A DNA stretch of 64,000 nucleotides from an uncultured Gammaproteobacteria bacterium (GCA_964396715.1 CAYNFQ010000001.1:21037-85036), one strand, 5' to 3'; shown: positions 13,245 through 59,339, counted from the first letter of the stretch. The notes: a model not told the origin generated them from the letters alone. Program-made: numbers and translations.

Positions 13245-13277
13245 TCTAAGGATTTTATTTTAGCATATAATAAAAAT

Positions 13278-15473: not shown

Positions 15474-15528
15474 TCAGCAGAGTGTTGCAAGTTGCATTTT
15501 CCAATACGATTAGTATATCTTGATTGCG

Positions 15529-31000: not shown

Positions 31001-32187
31001 TTGAAAGGTGCTAGATTTGGTATGGGGGCCGCATTTTGCAGAATAAAATTTTGAGCATAAAGATAAATTGCTAAAAATATCAGGGGTGAAATTATTTTAA
31101 ATTCTTTAGAAGTTAAGACTTTTTCAAATGCAATTAAGACAAATGGGGTGACGGGTAGAACATATCTTGATATATCCCTGTGTGCAACAAAGATTGCGGC
31201 AGCAAGAAAGGTAACCACAAAAAAGGCCATAGGGTATAATTTCTGTTTTATCAGCAGTACTCCACCCAAAAAACCTAAAATAAAAATATAGACTATATCT
31301 TCCAGCCAGGCCTCCCCCACCCAAAATTGGTGTTTGTTAAAAACCTGAAATGGGGGAAAAGTTAGATGAATATTATCTCCGCTTTTAAAATAGGCAAAAA
31401 AGTCTTGGTAAGTGAGTGAATACCAGAAAAATACGGTAAGCAAAGCAAGCGGTATGAGTATAAGTGGTGAGTATGTAACAATTATTCGCATAAGCGAAAC
31501 AAATTGCCCCGCCTTTTGTGCAATGACTTTCCAAATTAAGAAGCAACCTATGGCAATAAACAATAAAATTCCGGGTGGTCTGGTCAGTTGCGCCAAAGCT
31601 CCCATCCCTCCTGCCAAAAGTATATATGAAAACTTACTTGATTGCTCAAATTTCATAAAAAAATAAATGGCAGATAGAGTAAACAGAATAAAGGTTGGTT
31701 CGGAGGATCCTACAGAATGGACAATTAACCACCTGGCAGGCAAGATGAGAAATAATAATGATAAAAACAATGGATGTGAACTAAGCCTGAAGTTGTAAAC
31801 CAGCAGGTAAAATACCCAAGTAGCCAGTATTGTGGAAATTATTGCAACAATCAGCATGGATTTTAAGTAGCCAAAAAATGGGGCCAGAAGGGAGATGAGT
31901 AGAGAGTAACCAGGGAAATGCGAGGCAAAATAATTGGCAGAAAGTCCCATGGGCAAACTGTTTAGAATATCAGGATTATAAAAAGATTTAGCAATTGCAA
32001 TATATTCCAAGCCATCATAGTTTCTATCAATTGTTGAGAATCCTTCTTTGAAGGATAGCCCCCAAAAGTTAGGTAAGGCTAAAATATGCGGAAGCCAGAC
32101 TGCCAAGGTTAAAGTTACCGTACAGACGGCAAGCATAATCAGATCTTTGAATTTATTACTCACTAGTCTATTATATACATTATCCAT
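30997..32187 (-). CDS. polytopic membrane protein, probable GT-C/DUF2029-like glycosyltransferase
   Basis: About 396 aa from the ATG at 32187 (MDNVYNRL), with 10 or more TM helices. Its start codon lies back-to-back with the divergent 32189 gene. The family assignment is tentative. Confidence 0.4.
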   Translation of the reverse strand: MDNVYNRLVSNKFKDLIMLAVCTVTLTLAVWLPHILALPNFWGLSFKEGFSTIDRNYDGLEYIAIAKSFYNPDILNSLPMGLSANYFASHFPGYSLLISLLAPFFGYLKSMLIVAIISTILATWVFYLLVYNFRLSSHPLFLSLLFLILPARWLIVHSVGSSEPTFILFTLSAIYFFMKFEQSSKFSYILLAGGMGALAQLTRPPGILLFIAIGCFLIWKVIAQKAGQFVSLMRIIVTYSPLILIPLALLTVFFWYSLTYQDFFAYFKSGDNIHLTFPPFQVFNKHQFWVGEAWLEDIVYIFILGFLGGVLLIKQKLYPMAFFVVTFLAAAIFVAHRDISRYVLPVTPFVLIAFEKVLTSKEFKIISPLIFLAIYLYAQNFILQNAAPIPNLAPFN

Positions 32188-32188
32188 A

Positions 32189-34345
32189 ATGATTAAAAAT
32201 TTGTCCGTGTTTTTCCCACTATTTAACGAAGCAGGTAATGTGGAAACAACTGTCAAAAAAGCAGTTGAAGTTTTACAAAAATTAAAGCTCGGGTATGAAA
32301 TTATTCTAATTAATGACGGTTCTAAAGATGGGACAAAAAGAGTAGCAGAAGGCCTCTCTAAAGAAAATCCCAGCATTAGGGTTATAAACCATGAGAAAAA
32401 TTTAGGTTATGGTGAGGCGCTCAAGTCGGGTTTTTACAATGCCAAATATGACACGATTGTTTATACGGACGGAGACGGGCAGTTTGATTTCTCCGAAGTG
32501 ACAAAGTTCCTGGATAAGATAGATGATTATGATTTGCTGATCGGATACCGGATCAAAAGGCAAGACCCCTTTTTTAGAATACTTTTTAAAAAAGGCTGGA
32601 CTTTTGCTCTTTGGACCATGTTTGGTTTGACTTTAAAAGACGTAGATTGCGGTTTCAAAATGATAAAAAGAGAAGTCTTGGAAGCAATTCCCCATTTAGA
32701 GTCACAAAGAGGGGCAATGATCAATGCCGAGCTGGCAATTAAGGCCAAAAAAAATGGATTTAGGGTGGGACAAATAGGAGTGGATCACTACCCAAGGTTG
32801 TCCGGAAGGCCAACAGGAGCTAGTTTAAATGTGATTATTAGATCTTTTACTGATTTATTTAAACTATGGTGGAAGCTGAAAGAGCAAAAGTTTCTTTTCA
32901 TTTTGCTGGCAGGGATTTTACTTTTGGCTGCATTTTTGCGATTTTACAAAATTGATCAGTATATGCTTTTTTTGGGGGATGAAGGCAGGGATGCTTTAAT
33001 TGTGAAAGAGATTGTTGAAGGTCGGCATTTTCCCTTAATCGGCCCGCCCACATCGGTGGGAAATATTTACCTGGGCCCTCTATATTACTATATGATGGCA
33101 ATCCCCATGTTTATATTTAATTTAAATCCGGTTTCTGCAGCCGGAATGAATGCAGCAATTGGAGTTTTAACAGTATTTCTGGTTTATATCTTAGGGAAAC
33201 TATGGTTTGGCAGGGAGGCGGGCCTGATCTCTTCTTTGTTATATGCAGTCTCTCCGGTTACTATAAACTATTCCAACTTTTCCTGGAATCCCAACCCTAC
33301 CCCCTTTTTTGCCTTGCTGGTCATACTTTCTCTTGACAAATTTCATAAGTTAGGAAATTACAAATGGCTGATTTTAACAGCAGCATCAGCAGCAGCTGCT
33401 TTGCAAATGCATTATCTGGCCCTGATTTTACTGCCGGTCTTAGTGGTTGGTTGGCTTAAAGAATTATTGGCAAAAAAAAGCCCCCTTTTTTGGGGAGGAA
33501 CAATTTTAGCGCTGCTTACTTTTTTTCTTTTCATGTCGCCTCTTTTATTGTTTGATTTAAGGCACAATTTTTTAAATTTTAAAGCCATAACTGCGCTTTT
33601 TTTTGGTCAAGATACATCAGTTGGATTTAATATTGTCGATTCTTTACAAAGAATTCCTCAAATTTTTAGTCAAAGTCTCATCGGCAGATATTTAACAGCA
33701 GAAAACCCGGTTTTAACTTTTATTGTTTCAATACTTATACTAATACCGCTAATTTATACCGGTTACCTGATGTATCAAAAAAGGTCGTTTAACTACGGGT
33801 TCTGGATATTAAATAACTGGCTTTTAATAGGTATTTTGGGATTGTCATTTTATAAACAGCAAATCTTTGATCATTATTTAAACTTTCTAAATCCGGCGCC
33901 TTTTTTACTTTTTGGCTCTTTGGTAAAACTTAAGAAAATATTTTTGGCGCCAGTTTTGGTTTTAGTTGTTGTTTTAACATTTGTAAATTTAGCTAAAAAC
34001 CCCCTAAACTTGCCTCCGAATAAACAACTGGAAAGAAGCCAGCAGGTTGCCAAGTTTGTGATTGAAAAAAGTCATAGAGAGGATTTTAATTTTGCCCTGC
34101 TTGCGGAAAATAATTATGACTCAGCTTATATTTTTTATCTGGAAAAATATGGCCACAAGCCAAAAATAGTGCCGCAGGAAAAAACTACCCAGCTTTTTGT
34201 AGTTTGTGAGGATCAAATTTGTGATCCCACTCACAGCGCAAAGTACGAAGTGGCCGCATTCGGTATGTCCAAAATTGACTGGATGGAAGAATATTTTGGA
34301 GTTAAAATATACAGATTGATTCCTAATCCGTCAGGAAGACCATGA
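32189..34345 (+). CDS. fusion protein: N-terminal GT2 (Dol-P/Und-P sugar synthase-like) plus C-terminal GT-C membrane glycosyltransferase domain (paralog family A)
   Basis: N-terminus FPLFNEAGNVE...INDGSKDGT...TDGDGQ (GT-A). After about 230 aa comes a polytopic domain with the loop motif LGDEGRDALIVKE...IGPPTSVGNIYLGPLYYYMM shared with the 10059, 15529 and 17012 genes. The ATG at 32189 is preferred. Confidence 0.7.
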   Translation: MIKNLSVFFPLFNEAGNVETTVKKAVEVLQKLKLGYEIILINDGSKDGTKRVAEGLSKENPSIRVINHEKNLGYGEALKSGFYNAKYDTIVYTDGDGQFDFSEVTKFLDKIDDYDLLIGYRIKRQDPFFRILFKKGWTFALWTMFGLTLKDVDCGFKMIKREVLEAIPHLESQRGAMINAELAIKAKKNGFRVGQIGVDHYPRLSGRPTGASLNVIIRSFTDLFKLWWKLKEQKFLFILLAGILLLAAFLRFYKIDQYMLFLGDEGRDALIVKEIVEGRHFPLIGPPTSVGNIYLGPLYYYMMAIPMFIFNLNPVSAAGMNAAIGVLTVFLVYILGKLWFGREAGLISSLLYAVSPVTINYSNFSWNPNPTPFFALLVILSLDKFHKLGNYKWLILTAASAAAALQMHYLALILLPVLVVGWLKELLAKKSPLFWGGTILALLTFFLFMSPLLLFDLRHNFLNFKAITALFFGQDTSVGFNIVDSLQRIPQIFSQSLIGRYLTAENPVLTFIVSILILIPLIYTGYLMYQKRSFNYGFWILNNWLLIGILGLSFYKQQIFDHYLNFLNPAPFLLFGSLVKLKKIFLAPVLVLVVVLTFVNLAKNPLNLPPNKQLERSQQVAKFVIEKSHREDFNFALLAENNYDSAYIFYLEKYGHKPKIVPQEKTTQLFVVCEDQICDPTHSAKYEVAAFGMSKIDWMEEYFGVKIYRLIPNPSGRP

Positions 34346-35100
34346 AGAAATTATCTGTTGTCATACCTGCATATAATGAGGAAAGAAACCTTAAAAGGGG
34401 AGTGTTGGATGCTGTTGAAGATTTTTTGGAAAAAAGCGGACTGGAATATGAGGTGATGGTAGTGGATGATGGTTCAACAGATGCCACACGCGAGGTTGTG
34501 AAGGGGTATGTTGCAAAAAACAACAACTTCAGACTGATTGAAAATTCTCACGGAGGAAAAGCCATGGCTGTCATGACCGGCATGCTTAAGGCTAAAGGTG
34601 AGATAGTTTTATTTACAGATATGGATCAGGCCACCCCAATTGATCAGTGGAATAAATTTCTGCCAAAATTTGAGGAAGGTCTGCCTGCCGGTAGGCAGGG
34701 CTATGATGTTGTGATTGGCTCCCGATCTGGCAGGAAGGGGGCGCCTATGGTAAGACAACTGGCTGCCTGGGGGTTTTCATTTTTGCGGGGGATAATTTTA
34801 GGACTGCCTTTTTCCGATACCCAATGCGGTTTTAAGGCTTTTAATAGAGAAGCAATTGAAAAAATTATTCCCAAAATAAAAAGTGAATGGGGGGTGGTGC
34901 ATTTTAAGGGAGGAGCAGTCAATGCCGGCTTTGATGTGGAATTATTATACTTGGCCAAAAAATACGGCTTTAAGATTGCAGAGGTGGAGGTGGTATGGAA
35001 TTATGTGGATACGGAAAGAGTACAGGTCATAAAAGACGCCCTGGCAGCAATTTATGACATGTTAAGAATTAGAATTAATGATTTAAAGGGGAAATATTAA
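34342..35100 (+). CDS. GT2 glycosyltransferase, Dol-P-glucose/mannose synthase-like (soluble)
   Basis: VVIPAYNEERN ... VVDDGSTD ... TDMDQ motifs. 252 aa with no TM domain. A 4-bp overlap couples it to the upstream fusion gene. Confidence 0.8.
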   Translation: MKKLSVVIPAYNEERNLKRGVLDAVEDFLEKSGLEYEVMVVDDGSTDATREVVKGYVAKNNNFRLIENSHGGKAMAVMTGMLKAKGEIVLFTDMDQATPIDQWNKFLPKFEEGLPAGRQGYDVVIGSRSGRKGAPMVRQLAAWGFSFLRGIILGLPFSDTQCGFKAFNREAIEKIIPKIKSEWGVVHFKGGAVNAGFDVELLYLAKKYGFKIAEVEVVWNYVDTERVQVIKDALAAIYDMLRIRINDLKGKY

Positions 35101-35150
35101 TTCTTCGCAAGAGCTATATTTTAAGATAAATTTATGGCAAAATAGGATGT

Positions 35151-36344
35151 ATGTATGATAATCTGATTGCACAAAAAATTGCTCAACAATACCAACAGAA
35201 TCCCTTGACGGATTTTGCGAGTGTAATATCAACAACGCCATTAAACGCATTAAATTTAAATTGGCGAGAGAGAGATTTGCCTGAAATAATAAGAACCAAA
35301 CATGTTCATCGCCTGCATCCCTATCTTGGCAAGTTTATTCCACAATTGGTAGAGATTTTTTTGCGGAAATATAAACCAGGGCTTGTTTATGATCCATTTG
35401 TGGGTAGTGGTACAACAATCGTTGAAGCAAATACTCTAGGAATAGATTCTATCGGGACAGATGTTTCTGCTTTTAATGTTCTTCTTTCGAAGGTAAAAAC
35501 TGCGAAATATGATATTTCTCTTCTAGAAAAAGAAATTTATGACATCCTTGATCGCTTAAATACATATAAAAATAAATTTTATAAAGATGAAAAAGTAAAT
35601 AAGTTATTTACCATCAATAATGAGTATTTAAATGGCTGGTTCGCCCCGCAAACCCTAAAAGAACTTCTTTGTTACCTACGTTTAATCAAAGATTATACAT
35701 ATCAAGATTTACTAAAAATTATCTTATCTCGCTCGGCTCGTTCAGCACGCCTGGTTACTCATTATGATCTGGATTTCCCCAAAAAACCACAAAGAGGACA
35801 ATATTTTTGCTATAAACACAACCGAACATGCCAACCAGTGGGCGAAGCATATAAATTTTTATCACGCTATACAATTGACACGCTTAATAGAATTAAAGAA
35901 TTTTCAAAAATTAGAACACAAGCAAAAGTTGTCGTGAATCATGCTGATTCCCGAGAGGTAAAATTGCCAACAGGTATTGATATGGTTTTCACCTCACCGC
36001 CCTATATTGGTCTCATTGACTATCATGATCAACATAAGTATGCATATGAACTATTAGGATTACAAAATAATGAAACACGAGAGATAGGCGCTGCAAAAAG
36101 GGGTCAATCTGACCAAGCGAAGAAAGAATATATAAAAGGGGTAAACGAAGTACTACTCCATACTAGAGATTATATGACTAAAAATGGAATAGTTTTAATT
36201 GTAATAAATGATAGATATAATTTATATAAACCAGAAAGCGTAGGTTTCAAATCAATCGGAAAAGTTGACCGTCATGTAAATCGTCGTACAGGCCGTCGAG
36301 AAAGTGCATTTTATGAAAGCATTTTAATTTGGCAAAAAATATGA
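35151..36344 (+). CDS. DNA amino-methyltransferase (N6-adenine or N4-cytosine), alpha-class architecture
   Basis: Motif I DPFVGSGTT near aa 80 and motif IV FTSPPY near aa 285, with a target-recognition-like region between them. AT-rich codon usage. Confidence 0.85.
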   Translation: MYDNLIAQKIAQQYQQNPLTDFASVISTTPLNALNLNWRERDLPEIIRTKHVHRLHPYLGKFIPQLVEIFLRKYKPGLVYDPFVGSGTTIVEANTLGIDSIGTDVSAFNVLLSKVKTAKYDISLLEKEIYDILDRLNTYKNKFYKDEKVNKLFTINNEYLNGWFAPQTLKELLCYLRLIKDYTYQDLLKIILSRSARSARLVTHYDLDFPKKPQRGQYFCYKHNRTCQPVGEAYKFLSRYTIDTLNRIKEFSKIRTQAKVVVNHADSREVKLPTGIDMVFTSPPYIGLIDYHDQHKYAYELLGLQNNETREIGAAKRGQSDQAKKEYIKGVNEVLLHTRDYMTKNGIVLIVINDRYNLYKPESVGFKSIGKVDRHVNRRTGRRESAFYESILIWQKI

Positions 36345-37177
36345 CTGACGCACAAGAGATGAAAAAAGCAATTCAATCTGTCATTAAGTTAATGATGGAT
36401 AGAGTTATGCAGAATGTTTTGGTTATAGATCCCTTTATTAAGGAAAATCATAAAGCTAAGAAACCATTGTATGCTGCCCTGGTACCAGACGAAATATTTA
36501 AGGGCTCACATTTTGAAAGGAAGTTTGTTACTCCTTTTGGTAAAGCTTGGCAAAAACTAGCAATTGTAGCAGCTGATAAGGGTTTAGGACACGGTGTTAA
36601 TGAATATAGCATAGTAGGTAAAATAAACGCTGAGCGACTGCGTCGGATACAACAAGTGTTAAATTTACTTGAGTATTCTGAAAAAGGAAAGAAAAGAATA
36701 AAACCTAATTGGAAGAAAGAGTTGAAGTATATTTTAGAGGGAAAAAGTAAAGAATTAATCCCCACAACTGTTATTTGTGATGTTTATGTTGAGGATAAGA
36801 AGAGCGGTAAAAAGTACGCCTTTGAATTAAAAGCGCCATTACCAAATAGCGATCAAACTAAAGTAAGCAAAGAAAAGTTACTAAAATTATATAGCATGGA
36901 TCCTGTTCAAATTAATGGAGCTTATTATGCTTTGCCGTATAATCCATATGGTAAAAGAATGAATTATTCGTGGAGTTTTCCGGCTCGATGGTTCGATATG
37001 AAAAATGATGAGGTTGTTTTGATCGGAGATGAGTTTTGGGAAAAAATTGGAGGCGTAGGAACATATAAAGCCTTTATCAATGCGGTAAATGAAATTGGAA
37101 AAGAATATAAGGATCGAATATATAGAGAATTTTTAGGTATCGAACCACCAACTAATTTAGATGAGGGTAAGCTCTAG
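36341..37177 (+). CDS. candidate Type II restriction endonuclease (PD-(D/E)xK-like)
   Basis: Its ATGA start overlaps the methyltransferase stop. A PD-(D/E)xK-like arrangement (ICDVYVEDKK...FELKAP) is present. No other family is recognised. Its position directly after a solitary-looking methyltransferase is typical of a cognate nuclease. Confidence 0.45.
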   Translation: MTDAQEMKKAIQSVIKLMMDRVMQNVLVIDPFIKENHKAKKPLYAALVPDEIFKGSHFERKFVTPFGKAWQKLAIVAADKGLGHGVNEYSIVGKINAERLRRIQQVLNLLEYSEKGKKRIKPNWKKELKYILEGKSKELIPTTVICDVYVEDKKSGKKYAFELKAPLPNSDQTKVSKEKLLKLYSMDPVQINGAYYALPYNPYGKRMNYSWSFPARWFDMKNDEVVLIGDEFWEKIGGVGTYKAFINAVNEIGKEYKDRIYREFLGIEPPTNLDEGKL

Positions 37178-37198
37178 TAAAACTATAGGGGTAAAAAT

Positions 37199-37384
37199 AT
37201 GAGTAAAACAATCAAAAAATTGAATAAGCTAAATAACCTCGAAAGTTTTATCCAAATTGATACTATTAAGGGGTTCAAATATATAGATCGTGCGGGGGAA
37301 ATAGTCAACACATATTACAAAAAAATACTCCACTGTATTTACCATGGGGCTAAATGGTCTAGTAATAGAGCAACCAAAAAATAA
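37199..37384 (+). CDS. small hypothetical protein, possibly part of a degraded hsdS
   Basis: 61 aa, preceded by an AGGGG ribosome-binding site. No motif recognised. Confidence 0.3.
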   Translation: MSKTIKKLNKLNNLESFIQIDTIKGFKYIDRAGEIVNTYYKKILHCIYHGAKWSSNRATKK

Positions 37385-37515
37385 AATTGAACAACAAAAA
37401 ATTGCGGAGTTGGTGAGAAAATCTCACGAAGCCAGAAAGACATCAAAAGAGCTTTTGGAAGAAGCCAAAAGAAAGGTTGAAAAAATGATAGAAAATGGTG
37501 ATAAAATAGAAACTT
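37344..37515 (+). pseudogene. HsdS-like (Type I restriction-modification specificity subunit) conserved-region remnant
   Basis: A different frame from the 37199 ORF encodes ...IEQQKIAELVRKSHEARKTSKELLEEAKRKVEKMIE, resembling the conserved EQQKIA coiled-coil spacer of HsdS. Only about 57 codons remain. Confidence 0.35.
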
Positions 37516-38073
37516 ATGGCTGAATCTTCTTCGATGCTTCCTCTGGGGACAAGCTTACCGCAGTTTTCTTTAACTGATGTGGTTTCCGGGCAGATTATTT
37601 CTTCAACTGATTTTTCCGGCAAACCGCTCTTGGTAATGTTTATCTGCAGGCATTGTCCGTATGTAAAACATGTTGAAAATGAACTGGCAAAATTGGGTAA
37701 AGATTATCAAGGCAAAATTGGCATTGTGGCCATATCCTCAAATGACATAACAGCTTATCCGGAGGATGCGCCGGAGTCTTTGAAGGAGCAGGCAGAAGAA
37801 GTAGGTTTTAGTTTTCCTTATCTTTATGATGAAAGCCAGGATGTAGCTAAAAGTTTTAGGGCTGCCTGTACGCCGGATTTATTTCTCTTTGATAAAGAAG
37901 GAAAGTTGGTTTATCGAGGTCAATTGGACGGGAGCAGACCGGATAGCGGTATTCCGGTGACCGGAAAAGATGTTCGAGCAGCCATTGATACTTTGCTTTT
38001 CGGCCAACCCATCAGCCCTGACCAAAAACCCAGCATAGGATGTGGAATTAAGTGGAAATCTGTGATAACCTAA
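37516..38073 (+). CDS. thioredoxin-fold protein (TlpA/AhpC-TSA-like, CxxC)
   Basis: CRHCPY active-site-like motif in a thioredoxin-like fold, with a redoxin-type layout. Confidence 0.65.
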   Translation: MAESSSMLPLGTSLPQFSLTDVVSGQIISSTDFSGKPLLVMFICRHCPYVKHVENELAKLGKDYQGKIGIVAISSNDITAYPEDAPESLKEQAEEVGFSFPYLYDESQDVAKSFRAACTPDLFLFDKEGKLVYRGQLDGSRPDSGIPVTGKDVRAAIDTLLFGQPISPDQKPSIGCGIKWKSVIT

Positions 38074-38077
38074 ATTT

Positions 38078-38326
38078 ATGTCCAAAAAAGCGTTTGTGGT
38101 TATTTTAGTCTTAAGTGTGGTGGTAACTTATGGAATGGCATTTGTAGATGATGTAATTAATCCTACTAAGAATCCAACCGGTTTACCTTTTAGTTTTGCA
38201 TCTTTTAATTTTCTAGGTGGATCAAATGATAATCTTATGCTAGTTTTAGATATAACCTTTTGGTTTGTGGTTATTTGGGGAATCTGGAAAGCTATCTCTT
38301 ATTTCTCTGGTCGTGGGGGACGATAA
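38078..38326 (+). CDS. small membrane protein
   Basis: 82 aa with two hydrophobic helices. Confidence 0.35.
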   Translation: MSKKAFVVILVLSVVVTYGMAFVDDVINPTKNPTGLPFSFASFNFLGGSNDNLMLVLDITFWFVVIWGIWKAISYFSGRGGR

Positions 38327-40835
38327 CTTCAAAACTGGATAAAGAGGTATTTCCTGCTAAGTCCGTAGCAAATATTTTTATTATGTATTTTCTCCCATCT
38401 TTATCATCACCTTTTCTTGATGCCTCCAGTTTAATAGCTTGATTTATATTTGTTTGGCTTCCAAGTGTTACAGAAGATTCAATCAAGTCATATTCGTCTT
38501 CCACGATAATTTTTGTTAGATACGGATTATCATCAGCGATAGTACCTGTAATATTCACATCAACCATTTTATTATTCGGTGGCCAGATACTCTTTGGACT
38601 AACATCTAATGAAATTGTCGGGGGAGTGTAATCATAATTTGCATTTCCTTCCAAAATGCTGAACTTTTCAACATTGGCATCTATGGTTCCATTCCCGTCT
38701 TCATCCAGTTTAATAACCGGCGATTGGTCTGAATTTGTATCAAAAGTAGTCTCCGCTTTAGTATTTTCTGTCAAAGGAATTTCTTTATAAAGGATAGTTT
38801 TCGAATTTTCATCATTTTCAAATTTCCTGATTTTAAAATCAAAACTGCCCTGATTTGTTGCTTCAAATTTAACATCATAAACTCCATTTATGGGAAGATA
38901 GATAAATTTAGCATCACCCAAAGTATCATAAGAGCTTCCGGGAATATTAGTTTCAAATCCATCCGTTGTTGGGCCTGTATGATTGCCGCTTGAGTCATAA
39001 ACATGGATATCAACAGGAGAGTGAACAGACAGAGTATTGCCTGCAAGTTTGAAAGGTTGAGTGGAAACTCCGCCAGGCAACTGATTATTACTATCTAAAA
39101 TATTTTTAACTAAATTTAATGCAGGTCCATTGGTAACTAAATTGCCGTGTTTCTGATTAGTGTAAAGGGTTTGTTGAGAACCAAAGGAGGCGCTAAGTAG
39201 CGGTACTGTTTCATCGCCATTTATTATACGCATATCTTTATGAATTCCTGCTATTCCAAATAAAGAAGTGTCTTTAATTTCAATAATTTGTCCTAAGGTA
39301 GGTTGTCCTGACCCAGCGATAACCACAACGTCCACACCATTTGTAGTAGATAACGTAGAATCTATTGAATGAAAAGTTTCACTTGGGTTAAATAAAGCAG
39401 TATTATGTCCAACAATTGTTAAGAGATTCTTAATCTGATTATAATTCAGGGCTCCGTTTTCTGTTCTATATGGATAGGGATGTTGAGCATCCTCATTTGA
39501 GTAAAAGTTAAAATAAGATTGACTTGGGGCCAATTGAAAACCACTGATCATATTTTGAATAACATCATTCATTTCAGATGGAGCTAAGGATAAACAATAA
39601 GGACCAAATGGGTATTTAAGACAGCCGCCATACCTTAGTACTTTTAAAAATTCTGTAGCTCCCAAATGTGGAGTTCCCAGGGTAAATAATTTTCTGACAT
39701 TCTGGGCGCGGTTTACATCAGCTATGTAGTTTCTGGCAACCAGGCCTCCCATGGAGTGGGCTACAATATCTACTTTCGTACTGCCTGTTTGACTCTTAAT
39801 CTGGTTAATTTTATTATCAAGCTCGGTTTTAGTTGTACTAATATCTTTTCTCCAATCATACGGAAACACAAAAAGATCCTCATTAAGGATATATCCATTG
39901 GCAGTGAAAAAATCTATGGCACCTTGATATGCCCTTGCCAGCAAATTGTTTGTTAACCCTATGTGTGCTTCACTGGTTATGCCATCATCTCTCATCCGTA
40001 ATACATCAAAATAATCATCATTCCCGGGATTTGCAGCTTCATCTTCATTTACCCAAACTTTTTCTCCTGATGGATAAATATGGTTAAAAGTCCCTCCATG
40101 CCCGTCCGTAGCATTCCAGATAGTATCCTCTTCAACTTTAAGTTCCGACCCTCCAATTCCGGGAATTAAAATTAAGGGAGTTTTGAGAGAAGGTGGGGGA
40201 GCAAGAGCTGTTAGCTTGATATTATCAAATCTGACATAAATATTACTGATATCCCCTGTCCAGTAACTTAAAGTCAGAACCCCTTTTTTAACTAAAGTTT
40301 CAGAATCTGTAATATCAAAAATTAAAGTGTCCCCTATCCAAGCTTTGATATTTTCATCTTTTAGCTCAACTTTTAGCTGATACCATTTTTGATTAATTAG
40401 AGGATAAGAGTGGGTATCAAAAAGCGTAGTAACTATCCCGCTTTGATTTTTTCTTAAAATAATCTCCGGGGTATTATATAAACCGGTTCCATGTCTAAAA
40501 TTAATCTCATAAGAATCACCATCAGGAGTATATCTGAACCCTACTCCATGATCTATACCGGATTGAGCATTAAAGTCTAGCTCAATTCTGTAGTTATCCC
40601 ATTGTGAAGACCCATTACTTATTCTTCCTCCAAAAGCCCTGCCTGATTTTGATCCGACTAGATTGCCATTGTTGATATACCAGTTTCCAGACTGTATTGT
40701 CCAGCCATCCAAGTTCCCATCACTAAAATCATCAAAAAGAAGGATGTCTCCTTCTGCAGCCAAAGCAGGCAGGCTAAAGAGTGAAATCAGGATAAACAAT
40801 AAGGCTGCTTTTAAAAATTTAAATAATCTGGGCAT
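38292..40835 (-). CDS. secreted multidomain protein: N-terminal DUF1080/LamG-like lectin domain, LCAT/PGAP1-like alpha/beta-hydrolase lipase domain, and C-terminal Ig-like beta domains
   Basis: Signal peptide, then a WTIQSGNWYINNGNLVG...YRIELDF beta-sandwich, then PGIGGSEL ... FPYDWRKD ... AHSMGG (nucleophile elbow) ... GTPHLG. These are diagnostic of the LCAT-like lipase/acyltransferase family. Confidence 0.7.
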   Translation of the reverse strand: MPRLFKFLKAALLFILISLFSLPALAAEGDILLFDDFSDGNLDGWTIQSGNWYINNGNLVGSKSGRAFGGRISNGSSQWDNYRIELDFNAQSGIDHGVGFRYTPDGDSYEINFRHGTGLYNTPEIILRKNQSGIVTTLFDTHSYPLINQKWYQLKVELKDENIKAWIGDTLIFDITDSETLVKKGVLTLSYWTGDISNIYVRFDNIKLTALAPPPSLKTPLILIPGIGGSELKVEEDTIWNATDGHGGTFNHIYPSGEKVWVNEDEAANPGNDDYFDVLRMRDDGITSEAHIGLTNNLLARAYQGAIDFFTANGYILNEDLFVFPYDWRKDISTTKTELDNKINQIKSQTGSTKVDIVAHSMGGLVARNYIADVNRAQNVRKLFTLGTPHLGATEFLKVLRYGGCLKYPFGPYCLSLAPSEMNDVIQNMISGFQLAPSQSYFNFYSNEDAQHPYPYRTENGALNYNQIKNLLTIVGHNTALFNPSETFHSIDSTLSTTNGVDVVVIAGSGQPTLGQIIEIKDTSLFGIAGIHKDMRIINGDETVPLLSASFGSQQTLYTNQKHGNLVTNGPALNLVKNILDSNNQLPGGVSTQPFKLAGNTLSVHSPVDIHVYDSSGNHTGPTTDGFETNIPGSSYDTLGDAKFIYLPINGVYDVKFEATNQGSFDFKIRKFENDENSKTILYKEIPLTENTKAETTFDTNSDQSPVIKLDEDGNGTIDANVEKFSILEGNANYDYTPPTISLDVSPKSIWPPNNKMVDVNITGTIADDNPYLTKIIVEDEYDLIESSVTLGSQTNINQAIKLEASRKGDDKDGRKYIIKIFATDLAGNTSLSSFEVIVPHDQRNKR

Positions 40836-40898
40836 TGATTAAATGATAATCCCAAGGTTGTAATTATGCAAACAGTAATCTTGAGCTGATATAATAGT

Positions 40899-42407
40899 AT
40901 GGTGAATTTAGCCCTTAAATACAAAAAAGAGATTTTCATAATTCTTATTCTTTTTGCCTTTTATTTTCTCTTTAGGCTTCCAAATTTAACTTTGCAGCCT
41001 ATTTTTGCGGATGAGGCCATTTATATCAGATGGGCCCAGGTGATGAGATCAGAACCAACCTTGCGCTTTTTACCTTTATCCGATGGCAAAACACCTCTGT
41101 TCATGTGGGCTATGATCCCCCTTTTTAAAATATTTGAAGACCCTCTTTTTGCAGGAAGATTTTTATCTGTTATGAGCGGGTTTGTCACTTTGATAGGCGT
41201 GTTGGCATTAGCATGGAGAGTGTTTGGCATAAAAACTGCCCTGTGGGCATCTTTTATTTATGTAGTGGTGCCCTACACTGTTTTTTTTGACAGAATGGCT
41301 TTGGTTGATGCTATGCTTTCAGCCTTTACTGTTTGGGCTTTATTTTTTGCAACACTTCTTGCTCAAAAAGTCAGGTTGGATTTGGCCATGATCTTGGGAT
41401 TTATTCTCGGAGGAGCATGGCTCACCAAAACTCCGGCTGTTTTAAATCTTTTTCTTTTGCCAGCATCCATACTTGCTTTTAAAAAATCAAAAGAAGATAA
41501 ATACTCATCTTTAAAACTGTTTTTCTTTTGGCTGATTGCCATATTTATTGCTCTTTTGATGTATAACGCCTTAAGATTGGGGCCTAATTTTCACCTTTTA
41601 TCTTCCAGAAATGCTGATTATGTGTTTTCTCCGGTTGAACTTTTAGGCAGGCCCCTGGATCCTTTTATTCCGCATTTTCGGGATATTTCAGACTGGTTTC
41701 CCAAACTTTTGACTTGGCCTGTTTTAATTTTAGGGGGGACAGGGGTAATTTGGGTGATTAAGGAAAAGAATAAATTAGGGTTTGTTGTTTTGCTTTGGGC
41801 TTTGATACCGCTACTTTTGGAAATGGCTTTCCTTCGTACATTTACCGCCAGATATTTGTTGCCTTCCATACCTTTGATTTTAATTTTTGCAGGATATGGT
41901 ATAAGTAAAATTTCAAATTTCAAATTTCAAATTTCAAATAATTTTTTAATACTAATTCTTTCAATAGTTTTAACCGTTCCGGCGCTTCATTTTAATTATC
42001 AGCTTTTAACCAGCTCTCCGCCCGATTCTTTACCAAAAGAAGAAAGAAAAGGTTATTTTGAAGGGTGGACTGCAGGATATGGTTTAAAAGAAATAGCTCA
42101 ATTTTTAACAGAACAAAACAAAACTCAAAAAGTGGTGGTGGGTACTGAGGGGTTTTTCGGCACCCTGCCTGACGGCTTGTATATTTACCTTGATAAAGCG
42201 GGAATTTCCATAATAGGTTCTCATGCCACAATTTCAGCCCAAATAAGAAATGCCGCCAAAGACAATCTGACTTTTTTTGTTGGTAATAAAAATAATTTAG
42301 AGGGAGCGATAGATAATGTTAGACTAATCAAAGAATATCCCAAGGCAAAAGCAGTTGATGGTAAACAAGATTCAACTGTTTTGTACCAAGTTTTACCAAA
42401 AGATTAA
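40899..42407 (+). CDS. PMT/ArnT-like GT-C glycosyltransferase (GT39/GT83-like, PMT_2)
   Basis: First-loop FADEAIYIRWAQ (DE motif), 11 or more TM helices and a C-terminal soluble domain. Contains an in-frame 4x heptanucleotide repeat. Confidence 0.7.
   Translation: MVNLALKYKKEIFIILILFAFYFLFRLPNLTLQPIFADEAIYIRWAQVMRSEPTLRFLPLSDGKTPLFMWAMIPLFKIFEDPLFAGRFLSVMSGFVTLIGVLALAWRVFGIKTALWASFIYVVVPYTVFFDRMALVDAMLSAFTVWALFFATLLAQKVRLDLAMILGFILGGAWLTKTPAVLNLFLLPASILAFKKSKEDKYSSLKLFFFWLIAIFIALLMYNALRLGPNFHLLSSRNADYVFSPVELLGRPLDPFIPHFRDISDWFPKLLTWPVLILGGTGVIWVIKEKNKLGFVVLLWALIPLLLEMAFLRTFTARYLLPSIPLILIFAGYGISKISNFKFQISNNFLILILSIVLTVPALHFNYQLLTSSPPDSLPKEERKGYFEGWTAGYGLKEIAQFLTEQNKTQKVVVGTEGFFGTLPDGLYIYLDKAGISIIGSHATISAQIRNAAKDNLTFFVGNKNNLEGAIDNVRLIKEYPKAKAVDGKQDSTVLYQVLPKD
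41921..41948. repeat. perfect tandem heptanucleotide repeat (TTTCAAA) x4 inside a GT-C gene
   Basis: 28 bp, four exact 7-bp units, read directly from the sequence. It encodes SNFKFQISN within a predicted TM/loop region. Confidence 0.8.
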
Positions 42408-42413
42408 TGATTT

Positions 42414-44063
42414 ATGAAAAAAACTCTAATTACTCTATTAGTTTTATTTTTGATCACCCTTCCCACATTAATACCCTTCTTTAATAGTCAGTTTTTTTAC
42501 ACCCAAGATCATATTTTTATAGCAAGACTGCATCAGATGACAACAGCCTTAGCAGATGGTCATTTTCCGGTCAGATGGTCTCCTGATTTAAGATTTGGCG
42601 AACCACTTTTTAATTTTTATGCCCCCCTGCCTTATTATTTGGGAGCAATTATTAAATTGTCTCCTTTAAATTATATTTGGGTTGCTAAAATACTCTTTAT
42701 CTTAAGCAGTTTTTTATCAGCTTTAACTATGTATCTTTTTATCAAACATTTGTTTGGTAACAAAGCTGCTTTTTTGGCAACAGTACTTTATACATATGCC
42801 CCATACAGGGCAGTGGATTTATATGTCAGGGGTGCTTTATCAGAAGCCTGGGCTTTTGTCTTTTTTCCTCTGATCTTTTATGTCTCAACTTTAATTTCAG
42901 AAAAAGTAAGTCTTCAAAGAATAGCCTTACTCTCACTATCTTTAGCCGGACTTTTCTTAACACATAATGTAACTACTTTAATGTTTTTGCCATTTTTAGG
43001 ATTTTGGTGGTTATATCTGATTTTCAGGCAAAAAAATTGGAGGGTAATTTTTCCTTTGTTCTTATCTTCTATTTTAGCTCTGGGGTTATCGGCATTTTTC
43101 TTATTGCCTGCTCTTTATGAGCGGCAATTTATTCAAACCCAATATTTACTGGTAGGTTATTTTGATTTCAGGGCTCATTTTGTGGCTTTTTATCAATTCT
43201 TTTCCACTTTTTGGGGATACGGTTCATCCCTTTGGGGGTCTAAGGATGATATGTCATTTCAAATAGGCTTGGTTCATTGGGCAACTTTGGTTTTGGCAGT
43301 CATCTTGGGATTTGTTTTTAGAAAGGATAAAAAGTTTCTAGGGCTGTTAGGGTTTTTGGGGGGTTGTTTTCTGCTATCTGTATTTTTGCAGCACAACAAA
43401 TCGGCCTTTGTTTGGGAAGCAATTCCTTTGATGGCTTTTATTCAATTTCCCTGGAGGTTTTTAGCCATCTCCATTTTTTTGGTAAGTTTAACCGGAGGGC
43501 TGGTTGCCAATTATTTGCAAAATAAATTTAAAATTATTTATTTTATTTTAACTTTAGCCCTGATTTTTGTTAATCTCCCTTATTTTAAACCAAGAAACTT
43601 TGTGGAAGATTCTTTTTTTGAAAAGTTTTTAAATAAAGAAAAGATGCACCAGGGAATAGATTTAACCAAGGATTATTTCCCCGTCTGGGTTAAAAATGAT
43701 CGGGTGGAGTATTTTGGCAGTCCCAGAGCAGTGGAGGGGAAAATTGCAGTGTTCGACTTTGAGAAAAAAACAGCTAAAGCTTTTGGCAGAATAGATGTTT
43801 TGTCTGATAGTTTGATTGAGATGCCAATTACCTATTTTCCTGGATGGGAAGTTAGAGCAAATGGTAAGGTTTTAAGTGTATCAGAGCCTTCAATACAAGG
43901 ACTGATTACTTTTGAACTACCCAAAGGCGAGTACAAAATTGATTTGGAATTGAAAGACACTCCTGTTAGAATGATGGGAAATTCAGTAAGTCTGGTAAGT
44001 TTTCTTTTGCTTCTTACCTGCTTAAGTTATAAAAAATTTAGATATGAATTTTATCAGAAGTAA
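42414..44063 (+). CDS. polytopic membrane protein with C-terminal extracytoplasmic beta domain (paralog family B; GT-C/YfhO-like candidate)
   Basis: RWSPDLRFGEPLFNFYAPLPYYLGAII near the N-terminus. A clear paralog of the next gene. Confidence 0.5.
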   Translation: MKKTLITLLVLFLITLPTLIPFFNSQFFYTQDHIFIARLHQMTTALADGHFPVRWSPDLRFGEPLFNFYAPLPYYLGAIIKLSPLNYIWVAKILFILSSFLSALTMYLFIKHLFGNKAAFLATVLYTYAPYRAVDLYVRGALSEAWAFVFFPLIFYVSTLISEKVSLQRIALLSLSLAGLFLTHNVTTLMFLPFLGFWWLYLIFRQKNWRVIFPLFLSSILALGLSAFFLLPALYERQFIQTQYLLVGYFDFRAHFVAFYQFFSTFWGYGSSLWGSKDDMSFQIGLVHWATLVLAVILGFVFRKDKKFLGLLGFLGGCFLLSVFLQHNKSAFVWEAIPLMAFIQFPWRFLAISIFLVSLTGGLVANYLQNKFKIIYFILTLALIFVNLPYFKPRNFVEDSFFEKFLNKEKMHQGIDLTKDYFPVWVKNDRVEYFGSPRAVEGKIAVFDFEKKTAKAFGRIDVLSDSLIEMPITYFPGWEVRANGKVLSVSEPSIQGLITFELPKGEYKIDLELKDTPVRMMGNSVSLVSFLLLLTCLSYKKFRYEFYQK

Positions 44064-45756
44064 CAAAGAATTTATTATCGGTTTAATCCTTACCTTAAGC
44101 CTTTTGTGGCCCCTTGTTTGGGCTCCCTATTTCACCCACCATGATGATGTGCAGGTGATAAGACTGTATGAGATGGACAAATGTTTTAAGGATGGACAAA
44201 CCCCCTGCCGCTGGGTTCCTGATTTGGGAGGTTTATATGGTTATCCGCTTTTCAACTATTATGCGCCTTTGCCATATTATTTTGGAGAAATCATCTACTT
44301 AATATCACAAAGTCTAATCTTGTCAGTCAAGTTGATGTTCGCAATTTCCTTTTTGGGATCTTATTTTTTTATGTATCTTTTGGCGCGAAAATTTTGGGGA
44401 AACTTGGGAGGGAGTTTGTCTGCAATTTTTTACAGTTTCGCACCATACCACGCCTTGGATTTTTATATAAGAGGAGCAATGGGTGAGATGTGGGCAATGA
44501 TGTTTTTCCCTGCTATTTTTTGGGCTCTAACCAAATTAGAAGAGCGAATAAATTTGGCTAATCTTTTAATGCTTGCTGCTTTTTTGGCTGGACTTTTTAC
44601 TTCCCACAATCTTTCTGTCATGATCTTTGCCCCATTTGTAATTATTTTTTGGCTGTTTTCATTTTTGAAGAAAAAAAGGATGAAATTTTTATTGTTTAGT
44701 TTAACATCTTTAGTATTTGGGCTGGCACTTTCCTCTTTTTATCTAATACCGATGCTTTTGGAGAAAAATTTAGTTCATGTTGAGACCACTACATATGGTT
44801 ATTTTGGTTACACAGAACACTTTAAAGGGTTTAAGAAATTATTTTTGGAAAGAAAGTGGGGGTATGGGTCATCAATTAGGGAAGTACCGGAAGCGGAGAA
44901 AGAAAAAATTTCATTTCAGATCGGCTGGATTCATCTGTTTGGGTGGTTGTTGGCCTTAATTGTCGCCAAACTGCTAATTAAGAAAAACAGAATGGTCAGT
45001 TATCTGATTTTGATTTGTACATTTTTGACACTTTTTGCAATTTTTCTGATTAACCCCAGATCAGAATTTATCTGGAGAGCAATTCAGCCCTTAAAGTATC
45101 TACAATTTCCCTGGCGATTGATGATGATGGTAATTTTCTTTACTTCCTTTATCTCAGGAAGCATTTTTCTGATTTTAGTAAATGACAGAAGAAAATATGT
45201 AATCTGGGGCGGTTTGGTCTTGGCGGTTGTGGCATTTAATTTTTCATATTTTCGCCCGGAAAAATTTTTACAAGTCAGCGATCAGGAACTTCTTTCAGGG
45301 CAGAATTGGGATAGACAGATCAAGAGATCAATTTTTGATTACTTGCCTATATATGCAAAAGAGCCGCCGGCTGAGCTGGCAACAGAAAGATATAAAATTT
45401 TAACAGGGGATAGTAGGATAGATAATTTTAAAGAAGGGACAAACTGGCTGAGTTTTGAAACTGTTACCAAATTCCACACAATTATCCGTTTATCACAATA
45501 CTATTTCCCTGAATGGAAAATTTTTGTAGATGGTGGTCAGATAAATGTGGAGTATAAAAATAACAGTTTGGGTCTGATGACGATAATTTTAGGTGAAGGG
45601 AACCACAAAGTTGAAGGAAGATTATATGATACCCCCGTAAGATCAATATCAAATGTTTTAACAGCAGGTACTGTTGCTTTAATGTTATTTTTATTTATTA
45701 CCCAACTGCCAAAGGCAAGAAAGTGGATTAGCTATTATAGAAAAAGGGTAAACTAA
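44044..45756 (+). CDS. polytopic membrane protein (paralog family B)
   Basis: RWVPDLGGLYGYPLFNYYAPLPYYFGEII and a conserved KWGYGSS block shared with the 42414 gene. A 20-bp overlap couples it to that gene. Confidence 0.5.
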   Translation: MNFIRSNKEFIIGLILTLSLLWPLVWAPYFTHHDDVQVIRLYEMDKCFKDGQTPCRWVPDLGGLYGYPLFNYYAPLPYYFGEIIYLISQSLILSVKLMFAISFLGSYFFMYLLARKFWGNLGGSLSAIFYSFAPYHALDFYIRGAMGEMWAMMFFPAIFWALTKLEERINLANLLMLAAFLAGLFTSHNLSVMIFAPFVIIFWLFSFLKKKRMKFLLFSLTSLVFGLALSSFYLIPMLLEKNLVHVETTTYGYFGYTEHFKGFKKLFLERKWGYGSSIREVPEAEKEKISFQIGWIHLFGWLLALIVAKLLIKKNRMVSYLILICTFLTLFAIFLINPRSEFIWRAIQPLKYLQFPWRLMMMVIFFTSFISGSIFLILVNDRRKYVIWGGLVLAVVAFNFSYFRPEKFLQVSDQELLSGQNWDRQIKRSIFDYLPIYAKEPPAELATERYKILTGDSRIDNFKEGTNWLSFETVTKFHTIIRLSQYYFPEWKIFVDGGQINVEYKNNSLGLMTIILGEGNHKVEGRLYDTPVRSISNVLTAGTVALMLFLFITQLPKARKWISYYRKRVN

Positions 45757-45757
45757 A

Positions 45758-47230
45758 ATGGAGTCAGTTGAACAAATTGATCCGACAGAAGAAGTTTCTG
45801 TGGAAACTGTTAAAAAAAGAGCAGTCAAGGGCGCAGTAATTCTGACAGGAAGAAATATCTTCATCCAGGGGATATCCTTTTTTGCAACAGCGCTGCTGAC
45901 GGTTTTTTTACTCCCTGCGGAATTTGGAGTTTTCTTTATTGTGTCTGCGGTGATTTCCTTTTTGGCATATTTTTCGGATATCGGTTTTGCAGCCTCTCTT
46001 ATTCAAAAAAAAGAAAATTTAGAAGATATCGAGTTAAAAACGGTCTTTACTGCCCAGCAGATACTGATAATTCTGCTTTTGGCAGTAGTCTTTTTGTTTA
46101 CCCCTCTGATACAAAATTTCTACAATCTATCAAAAGATGCAATATATCTTTTGTGGGCTCTTTCTTTTTCACTGTTTTTATCATCACTTAAAACCATCCC
46201 CACTGTTTTGATGGAAAGAAGGCTGGAATTTAACAAATGGGTGATACCGCAAATTGCCGAAACTTTAATTTTTAATATCACTGCGGTTTTTTTAGCATGG
46301 AAAGGGTACGGGGTGACAAGTTTTACCGTAGCGGTTTTATTAAGAAGTTTTACCGGACTTATCTTGACATATTTAATTAAGCCATGGATGCCGGCAATTG
46401 CTTTTTCTCAGAGTGCTTTTAAATCAATTTTAAAGTTCGGTGTTCCTTATCAGGCCAACACCTTTTTGGCCATGGTTAAAGATGACGGGATGATTTTGTT
46501 TTTAGGGTCTATTTTAGGACCCTCGGGTGTCGGGCTTTTGGGGTGGGCGCAAAAATGGGCCTATGCCCCTTTGCGTTTTTTTATGGATCAGGTAATTAAA
46601 GTTACCTTTCCGGCATTTTCCAGGTTGCAGGATAAAAGGGTGGAGCTTTCACAATCAGTCTCAAAAGCTATAATGTTTGTCTGCATTTTGGTTTTCCCCT
46701 CACTTGTGATGCTGGTGCTGGCAGCTCCAATCCTTTTGCAAATGATCCCGAAATACAGTAAATGGGAAGGGGCACTTTTTGCCTTAAGTGTTTTAAGCAT
46801 TACCTCTGCCCTGGCTGCCATCACCACTCCTTTAACAAATACCTTAAACGCCATCGGACGGATTTCTTTAACTTTTAAACTGATGGTGATGTGGACTATT
46901 CTCACCTGGATTTTGGTTCCTGTTTTGTCCATAATGTACGGTGTGAACGGAGCGGCTTTGGGGCTGACCTTGGTGGGATTAAGTTCTTTTGTGGCACTTT
47001 ATATGACTGGTAAATTTGTGGATATTGATTATCTGCAAACTGTGGGTAAACCGCTATTTGCTTCCATTCTGATGGGGGGAATGGTGTTGATGGTCAAGGG
47101 AATATTTGAAACCTCTTTTTGGCAATTGCTTGCAATGGGAATTGGCGGATTGTTTTCTTATGGCGCAACTATCATGGTACTTGAGCCGTCTTTAAAAAAC
47201 TTGCTGAAAACGCTGTTTAAAAAAGTATGA
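45758..47230 (+). CDS. wzx: oligosaccharide/polysaccharide flippase, Wzx (MOP superfamily)
   Basis: 490 aa, about 12-14 TM helices and polysacc_synt-like N-terminal motifs (VKGAVILTGRNIF...GVF). Confidence 0.75.
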   Translation: MESVEQIDPTEEVSVETVKKRAVKGAVILTGRNIFIQGISFFATALLTVFLLPAEFGVFFIVSAVISFLAYFSDIGFAASLIQKKENLEDIELKTVFTAQQILIILLLAVVFLFTPLIQNFYNLSKDAIYLLWALSFSLFLSSLKTIPTVLMERRLEFNKWVIPQIAETLIFNITAVFLAWKGYGVTSFTVAVLLRSFTGLILTYLIKPWMPAIAFSQSAFKSILKFGVPYQANTFLAMVKDDGMILFLGSILGPSGVGLLGWAQKWAYAPLRFFMDQVIKVTFPAFSRLQDKRVELSQSVSKAIMFVCILVFPSLVMLVLAAPILLQMIPKYSKWEGALFALSVLSITSALAAITTPLTNTLNAIGRISLTFKLMVMWTILTWILVPVLSIMYGVNGAALGLTLVGLSSFVALYMTGKFVDIDYLQTVGKPLFASILMGGMVLMVKGIFETSFWQLLAMGIGGLFSYGATIMVLEPSLKNLLKTLFKKV

Positions 47231-56499: not shown

Positions 56500-56563
56500 A
56501 AGTTCAACTTCCAGTATAGCAAAAGCATTTTACTTATTTGGTTGATCTTGGTACCATTTAAAC

Positions 56564-57454: not shown

Positions 57455-57473
57455 TTTAAATCATTAAAACAAA

Positions 57474-59338: not shown

Positions 59339-59339
59339 T

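Follow-up and report, generated by a model that had tools for sequence, protein, structure and literature searches.

The closest described relatives of the protein reported here are enzymes of the LCAT type. LCAT, LPLA2 and PDAT bind the lipid interface, take over an acyl group from a glycerophospholipid as an acyl-serine intermediate, and resolve this with water or a lipophilic alcohol. In Plasmodium and Toxoplasma, LCAT-like phospholipases are secreted and have been implicated in the disruption of membranes derived from the host (PMC10325081, PMC5830472). For Vampirococcus, a predator belonging to the Candidate Phyla Radiation (CPR), the use of host lipids through a phospholipase that the cell secretes has been proposed (PMC8080830). 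Here we describe a gene encoding an LCAT-like hydrolase of 847 amino acids with a predicted signal peptide (hereafter the lipase), its exchangeable N-terminal modules, and a small membrane protein gene that accompanies it, in a stretch of DNA of 64,000 nucleotides (CAYNFQ010000001.1:21037-85036; hereafter the window).

The lineage to which the lipase belongs gives the comparison its interest. CPR bacteria, Microgenomates included, are reported to be without complete lipid synthesis, and no mechanism of lipid acquisition has been identified in them so far (PMC7143001, PMC7242380, PMC11665869). Their membranes are fatty-acid-based and enriched in lysolipids, and lipidomics suggests that they are built from the lipids of other organisms (PMC7242380); lipid acquisition by Patescibacteria is an acknowledged open question (PMC11665869). 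Our literature search found no papers tying LCAT-type enzymes to CPR.

Results

The lipase gene occupies positions 38292..40835 of the window on the minus strand, as do all of its parts given below, and consists of an open reading frame (ORF) with an ATG start whose boundaries agree exactly with those of an initial annotation of the window. An identical protein is on record (MBI3103917.1, 'DUF1080 domain-containing protein'), encoded on contig JACPUL010000012.1 (236.8 kb) of the Candidatus Daviesbacteria metagenome-assembled genome GCA_016192255.1; it is thus deposited, yet uncharacterised. The protein has more than 1,100 homologs, the closest being 70% identical (E = 0), and the ORF and its domains are therefore not a product of chance. 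By analogy with other CPR, this ultrasmall groundwater bacterium of the Daviesbacteria (CPR/Patescibacteria) probably lacks lipid synthesis of its own. No lipid-synthesis genes were found in the window, which is part of the genome only and carries little weight for the whole assembly, and no paralogs of the lipase were found within it.

An LCAT/LPLA2-type catalytic core

The catalytic module spans residues 218-590 (39066..40184) and was assigned to the LCAT/LPLA2-fold alpha/beta-hydrolases from Pfam, structural modelling and Foldseek. The Pfam family LCAT (PF02450) scored 58.2 bits over residues 302-410 (cut-off 21; E = 1.1e-15), while PGAP1 (4.9e-10) and further alpha/beta-hydrolase families also matched, centred on the nucleophile elbow. 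An AlphaFold2 model of the whole protein, built on 42 homologs, reached a mean predicted local distance difference test (pLDDT) score of 84.8, with values mostly above 85 in the hydrolase, where it places an insertion after the first strand (residues 230-298) and a helical cap (residues 394-494).

When the model was compared with the PDB by Foldseek, ranks 1-10 were all LPLA2 (4X90-4X97) or LCAT (5TXF, 6MVD, 5BV7, 4XWG, 4XX1), with E-values of 1e-14 to 2e-11, target TM-scores of 0.64-0.73 and identities of 16-18%. These alignments run over about 406-420 columns against targets of 361-378 residues, and the hydrolase therefore matches the whole LPLA2/LCAT chain, beyond the nucleophile region. 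BlEst2 (6WPX), the next hydrolase in rank, was much weaker (E = 8e-8). Because sequence-only matches to the PDB did not reach beyond the roughly 60-110 residues surrounding the nucleophile, the LCAT assignment rests on Pfam and on the fold. As modelled, the core belongs to the LCAT/LPLA2 fold class, and the enzyme is a further member of a known family. The LCAT-type core with its YDWR and GxSxG motifs that the initial annotation had described is accordingly borne out, the profile of PF02450 scoring above its cut-off and Foldseek agreeing with it; FPYDWR lies at residues 324-329 and AHSMGG at residues 359-364.

Conservation was counted over 121 sequences (the query and 120 homologs) and over a distant set of nine relatives from Chloroflexota, other CPR lineages, Streptomyces and others. 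The YDWR motif (residues 326-329; 39849..39860) is kept in 9/9 distant relatives and nearly invariant among the homologs (Y in 119/121, D in 120/121, W and R in 121/121); the PGIGGSE loop is likewise nearly invariant. Three residues are strictly invariant and form the predicted catalytic triad: Ser361, the predicted nucleophile in AHSMGG (39753..39755; 121/121 homologs and 9/9 distant relatives); Asp541, the predicted acid in NGDETVP (39213..39215; 121/121, with GD(G/x)TV in all distant relatives); and His563, the predicted base (39147..39149; 121/121 and 9/9). In the model they sit at the canonical topological positions of nucleophile, acid and base, with Ser361 between strand 355-360 and helix 362-371, Asp541 after strand 529-540, and His563 after the last core strand (556-559). 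A second histidine, His489 (39369..39371), is equally invariant and was considered as the base, but its place is in a cap helix, ahead of the acid in the chain; His563 was taken as the base because it fits the canonical Ser-Asp-His order. The lipase has the motifs PxxxxPGxxGSxL, (F/A)PYDWR, AHSMG and GDxTV in common with LCAT and LPLA2, as well as the order Ser...Asp...His, at a similar spacing.

The sole low-confidence segment of the modelled core, residues 407-413, is bracketed by Cys405 and Cys414 (CLKYPFGPYC; 39594..39623). Both cysteines are present in 109/121 sequences and absent in the distant relatives, and the loop may be a disulfide-closed lid specific to the subfamily.

A fixed lipase body with exchangeable N-terminal heads

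The protein begins with a predicted signal peptide (residues 1-26, MPRLFKFLKAALLFILISLFSLPALA, with predicted cleavage after ALA; 40758..40835). Its parts, MPRLFKFLK, AALLFILISLFSL and PALA|AEG, combine three basic residues with a hydrophobic stretch of 13 residues and a cleavage-type end, and read as a classical cleavable Sec signal peptide. The signal region, which had also been recognised initially, is the sole transmembrane-like hydrophobic window of the protein and is helical in the model (residues 2-19). From these sequence features we infer that the lipase is secreted via Sec.

Residues 30-211 (40203..40748) form a beta-jelly-roll of the PF06439 (DUF1080)/CBM66-like type, supported by Pfam, by a sequence match to the PDB and by Foldseek. 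PF06439, now named '3-keto-disaccharide hydrolase', matched residues 33-208 with 48 bits against a curated cut-off of 26.8 (E = 1.9e-12), covering profile positions 5-186 of 187 and hence the whole profile. This supports the concanavalin-like/DUF1080 domain of the initial annotation, whose characteristic segment (DFSDGNLDGWTIQSGNWYINNGNLVG) is located at residues 35-60. By sequence, the domain matched the CBM66 of Bacillus subtilis levanase (E of about 3e-6, 20% identity), and by structure it superposed on CBM66 (4b1l/4azz/4b1m) with target TM-scores of 0.77-0.84 and a root-mean-square deviation (rmsd) of 2.2-2.5. Matches to the 3-keto-glycoside hydratases 8V31 and 9FBE were much weaker than those to CBM66 (target TM-score of about 0.45).

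Behind the hydrolase lie two beta-sandwiches, in keeping with the C-terminal Ig-like/beta domains read earlier from the sequence. Modelled separately, the last 250 residues again gave two confident sandwiches (pLDDT 89.9). The first (residues 597-735; 38631..39047; pLDDT of about 95) is as conserved as the catalytic core, with an identity of 0.62-0.74 and an occupancy of about 1.0 across the 120 homologs. The second, Ig-like in the model (residues 738-840; 38316..38624), shows lower conservation and occupancy. Neither had a Pfam match, and Foldseek returned only generic Ig/MG/FN3/CARDB-like domains with poor superposition.

We searched the core together with the first sandwich (residues 212-735) against 1.84 billion representatives clustered at 50% identity, and obtained 9,813 clusters at E<=1e-3, 3,972 at E<=1e-10 and 769 at E<=1e-30. 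Nearly all of the best 150 representatives cover both the core and the first sandwich. Named members come from Daviesbacteria, Levybacteria and the 'Patescibacteria group', and are annotated as alpha/beta hydrolase, esterase or hypothetical only. A scan of species-representative genomes added full-length relatives in Gottesmanbacteria, Falkowbacteria and Paceibacterota, secreted core-plus-sandwich relatives of ~1,000 residues in Chloroflexota (33% identity in Anaerolineales, 24% in Kouleothrix), and a bare core of ~460 residues in Streptomyces and many other phyla, some copies of which have no signal peptide. Given these relatives, the enzyme type is neither new nor limited to reduced genomes.

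All homologs keep the oxyanion loop and the acid at a fixed distance (307-331 residues), whereas the length of the segment before the oxyanion loop ranges from about 40 to 410 residues and that of the segment behind the acid from about 270 to 500. All-against-all clustering of the N-terminal segments yielded at least 11 unrelated classes of heads on one constant body of lipase and beta-sandwich; among them are beta-propellers of the RCC1 and PQQ/BamB-like kinds, and for several classes Pfam gave no match. Only 27 of 118 N-terminal segments matched a model of the DUF1080 head built from the closest homologs. The 'lectin-lipase' of the initial annotation is thus a real fusion in this protein but no hallmark of the family; it is one case of a variable head on a fixed lipase body. 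A direct instance is provided by two loci (L085 8001-10931 and L086 8001-11051) in which the lipase occupies the same syntenic slot, preceded by genes for H+-PPase, Lon, ribonucleotide reductase (RNR), NrdR and a cyclophilin and followed by those for an S11 peptidase and YkuD, and carries a DUF1080 head in one locus and an unrelated head in the other. This points to an exchange of the N-terminal module in place.

As a separate observation, two PQQ-propeller-headed homologs, Q7R97_05135 and Q7R97_04370 (P0100 and P0107), share a locus tag prefix, which indicates at least two paralogs in some Daviesbacteria genomes.

A small two-transmembrane partner

Convergent with the lipase, and overlapping its 3' end by 35 nucleotides, is a gene for a protein of 82 residues (38078..38326, plus strand) that the initial annotation had missed. 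It encodes a hairpin of two transmembrane segments with basic ends, a loop of ~30 residues containing G-x-P-F-x-F, and an invariant FWFxVxWxxWK in the second helix. Homologs of this partner lie tail-to-tail with the lipase, abutting or overlapping its stop codon, in 5/5 further loci fetched with the lipase, or 6/6 with the window (L084 9569-9856, L085 10878-11165, L086 11053-11340, L087 7584-7826 and L088 7589-7825, all on the minus strand in locus orientation). They are 28-82% identical and were recognised with hidden Markov model E-values of 1e-22 to 1e-39.

The reverse test gave the same picture. A metagenome scan with the partner alignment returned 22 loci (L089-L109 among them), in 19 of which the lipase was convergently adjacent; two of the other three end before the position of the lipase and the third is a spurious match of 14 residues, leaving 19 pairs among 19 testable loci, a number that includes near-duplicates and corresponds to at least about 12 distinct loci. 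Likewise, 14 contigs were common to the match lists of partner and lipase, across several head classes, with adjacent locus tags as in HYW62_00605/HYW62_00610. The pattern scan detected a single locus in each of the two near-complete genomes sampled (contigs of 1.02 Mb and 0.78 Mb).

Partner sequences fall into at least 300 clusters, each annotated as 'hypothetical'; they stem from Daviesbacteria, Levybacteria and Roizmanbacteria, and nothing meaningful matched the partner in Pfam. A search for defence systems with PADLOC gave a negligible LmuA match only, and nothing for the partner. Divergence by codon position was 0.37, 0.28 and 0.53, highest at the third, a pattern consistent with a coding sequence kept by purifying selection. 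Next to the distant lipase relatives in CPR or Chloroflexota the partner was not detected, and it therefore defines a Microgenomates-type subfamily, whose lipases are 46-70% identical. Within this subfamily the pair of lipase and two-transmembrane protein is strictly conserved.

Neighbourhood of the lipase and other features of the window

In the window the lipase gene is surrounded by genes for GT2, many GT-C/PMT_2, PTPS-related proteins, a Wzx-type flippase, a TdeIII restriction-modification pair and an AhpC-like protein. The neighbours of the five homologs are wholly different except for the partner, and consist of ribosomal, RNR, peptidoglycan or unrelated genes. Since the wider neighbourhood is not conserved, the glycosylation island around the lipase is probably incidental.

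This island (30997..63494) contains at least eight GT-C-type membrane proteins (PMT_2, PTPS-related, YfhO, GT87-like), several GT2/GT1 genes, the Wzx-type flippase and dTDP-sugar genes, and makes up a striking share of a genome of roughly the 1-Mb class. Inside it, Pfam matched nothing in two large ORFs at 47227..50619 and 50616..52601 (plus strand; 1130 and 661 residues). The type II restriction-modification pair, inserted at 35151..37177 (plus strand) between GT2 genes and the AhpC-like gene, is composed of a TdeIII-family endonuclease (E = 4e-73) and an N6/N4 DNA methylase.

A cyclophilin-type peptidyl-prolyl isomerase is encoded divergently, just upstream of the lipase, in 3/6 contexts (L085 7091-7576, L086 7209-7922 and L088 4321-4920) and is absent at the lipase of the window; it could represent a second, looser association.

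Elsewhere in the window, a likely secreted or surface protein with a domain of the CAP/cysteine-rich secretory protein family (E = 2e-19) is encoded at 25434..26318 (plus strand). Six ORFs of 373-578 residues have no Pfam match, including those at 4912..6033 (minus), 10059..11531 (minus), 13080..14816 (plus), 15520..18508 (plus) and 18952..20085 (minus). The ORF at 13080, which has a TTG start, overlaps an epimerase gene (12318..13244), and its true start probably lies further downstream. In 28/32 windows of 2 kb the GC skew is positive, and the cumulative skew rises near-monotonically to about 3 regardless of gene orientation; an unusual disparity in strand composition is reported from other Microgenomates (PMC7143001). 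A scan for promoters and terminators gave counts at or below chance and was not used.

Discussion

We favour the view that the lipase is an extracellular phospholipase A or acyltransferase directed against foreign cell surfaces, with a partner that is immunity-like or serves in docking, and give it a probability of roughly 0.55. A Daviesbacteria cell would export the lipase through Sec, and the CBM66/DUF1080 head would most likely bring it to the surface of another cell by binding a putative surface glycan. By means of Ser361, Asp541 and His563, the core would then strip a membrane glycerolipid of an acyl chain, load the chain on Ser361 and pass it on to water, giving a lysolipid and a fatty acid as a phospholipase A does, or to a lipid alcohol by transacylation, with the two Ig-like sandwiches acting as an integral support or spacer. 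Host or prey membranes would thereby be deacylated, and the released lysolipids and fatty acids would most likely feed a bacterium from a lineage that is without lipid synthesis. The partner would most likely protect or dock the lipase at the membrane of the producer, which is presumably made of the same kinds of lipid.

Several observations weigh against this view. The Pfam LCAT alignment covers only profile positions 68-182 of 392, about one third, and by sequence the nucleophile region is closer to Bacillus LipA-type lipases (E to 3e-12) than to LPLA2 (5e-6). Relatives in Chloroflexota and Streptomyces belong to organisms that make their own lipids, and the enzyme is therefore not tied to auxotrophy or reduced genomes. 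In addition, the position of the lipase inside a glycosylation island could point to the producer's own envelope.

That last point is the starting point of an alternative in which the targets of the lipase would be the membrane or the lipid-linked glycans of the producer itself. The enzyme could convert acquired phospholipids into the lysolipids typical of CPR membranes or transfer acyl chains onto surface glycoconjugates, and the partner would anchor it at the membrane of the producer. The GT2, GT-C/PMT_2, PTPS-related and Wzx flippase genes around the lipase would suit such a role, an integral membrane protein inherited strictly together with the lipase would suit as its docking site on the producer, and enzymes of the LCAT family are also transacylases, as is established for LCAT, LPLA2 and PDAT. 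The lysolipid enrichment of CPR membranes (PMC7242380) is equally in line with it. However, the glycosylation context is not conserved, the homologs lying instead by ribosomal, RNR, peptidoglycan and unrelated genes, and diverse external targets would account more readily for the wide exchange of heads than the cell's own envelope. We therefore regard action on the producer's own envelope as unlikely.

The combination of a variable, receptor-type module with a constant enzymatic domain could also describe a bacteriocin-like weapon, that is, a membrane-lytic toxin with a receptor-binding head, a killing lipase and a small immunity protein, for which nutrition would be a by-product. This possibility overlaps with the explanation that we favour. 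It draws on the conserved adjacent membrane protein on the opposite strand, an arrangement also seen in genes for pore-forming colicins and their immunity proteins, and on the match of the family profile to the antibacterial lipase Tle4 from a type VI secretion system (T6SS; 4R1D, E = 3e-9) (PMC4832377). Nevertheless, the known Tli immunity proteins are soluble or lipoprotein binders and not two-transmembrane hairpins, and the single locus in each of the two near-complete genomes has the look of a housekeeping gene rather than of a polymorphic arsenal. A dedicated weapon appears quite unlikely on these grounds.

Finally, it is very unlikely that the protein is a CBM-fused esterase, that is, a carbohydrate esterase or a depolymerase of polyesters such as native polyhydroxybutyrate (PHB) that works on polymers of lysed cells with a polymer-binding head, since, although its AHSMG box recurs in the extracellular PHB depolymerase PhaZ7 and in small Bacillus esterases, weak PhaZ7 matches were found (NCBIfam E = 1e-5; PDB sequence matches) and CBM fusions are typical of polymer-degrading enzymes, the PhaZ7 score is far below its cut-off with only a 50-residue nucleophile region aligned, the fold of the whole domain is that of LPLA2/LCAT with PhaZ7 not among the 50 best Foldseek matches, and most family members bear beta-propellers or unassigned modules instead of CBMs.

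Under the favoured view of a lipase directed at foreign membranes, the candidate is relevant in that lysolipids and acyl chains are what the characterised LCAT/LPLA2 enzymes make from phospholipids. The lipase offers a concrete, abundant and testable candidate for lipid acquisition or membrane attack by Patescibacteria, and its interchangeable surface-binding heads could reflect host specificity. One may go further and tentatively propose, as a distinctly doubtful extension, a two-gene system of Microgenomates (Daviesbacteria, Levybacteria, Roizmanbacteria) in which a head-swapping LCAT-like phospholipase/acyltransferase strips acyl lipids from the envelope of the host, the partner shields or docks the enzyme at the producer's membrane, itself host-derived, and the head sets the host range; such a system would represent the missing machinery of lipid acquisition and the source of the lysolipids. 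Even if the idea of scavenging were wrong, the conserved pair of lipase and two-transmembrane protein and the exchange of heads are new and well-defined features of a large uncharacterised family.

Comparison with known systems

Membership in several described families was considered and rejected. PhaZ7 (NF050060) reached 24.8 bits against a cut-off of 450. Lipases of subfamily I.4, exemplified by B. subtilis LipA, are minimal proteins of ~180 residues that have no lid or insertions, whereas the core here has ~370 residues with two large insertions, shares similarity with LipA over about 85 residues only, and ranks by structure with LCAT/LPLA2.

Pore-forming colicins have an exchangeable receptor-binding part, and their small integral-membrane immunity protein is encoded on the opposite strand immediately downstream. 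They bear no sequence or fold relation to the present pair and form pores, whereas the lipase is a predicted enzyme and immunity is our hypothesis for its partner. Tle4/TplE and Tli4 (4R1D) resemble the pair in that a membrane-targeting GxSxG hydrolase, similar to the lipase with E = 3e-9 over about 90 residues, is encoded beside a cognate protective protein (PMC4832377), protection by the partner being hypothetical here. Tle4, however, is delivered by the T6SS and has neither signal peptide nor lectin module, and Tli4 is soluble and periplasmic rather than a two-transmembrane hairpin. Given the signal peptide of the lipase, the lack of T6SS genes among its annotated neighbours and the short stretch of similarity, we do not assign it to Tle4.

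With BlEst2 (6WPX) of B. licheniformis and family XIV EstA3, the lipase shares the succession of a secreted alpha/beta-hydrolase and a beta-sandwich. In those enzymes the sandwich packs on the catalytic domain and affects the use of long-chain substrates (PMC10816834). They superpose poorly (target TM-scores of 0.36-0.41, rmsd of about 18), differ in core family, and have no N-terminal module or partner gene. The CBM66 of the B. subtilis levanase SacC (4AZZ/4B1L/4B1M) is a non-catalytic jelly-roll attached to an enzyme, as the jelly-roll described here may be, but the latter is fused to a lipase and not to a glycoside hydrolase, and the two are only 20% identical.

The closest functional analogy is probably offered by the LCAT-like enzymes of Apicomplexa (Plasmodium LCAT/PbPL, Toxoplasma TgLCAT), which are secreted by host-dependent parasites (PMC10325081, PMC5830472), although these are eukaryotic, act from within a vacuole, and lack lectin and Ig-like modules as well as a small partner gene. 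Over its full extent the hydrolase module is structurally most similar to LPLA2 (group XV PLA2, PDB 4X90-4X97) and LCAT (5TXF, 4XWG), secreted enzymes that work at lipid-water interfaces, as the predicted secretion of the lipase would allow here too. In contrast to them, the present protein is bacterial and possesses an N-terminal jelly-roll, two C-terminal sandwiches, the Cys405-Cys414 loop and a small membrane protein as its neighbour. The enzyme itself being of a known family, the novelty lies at the level of the system, in the combination of a fixed lipase body, interchangeable heads and a two-transmembrane partner.

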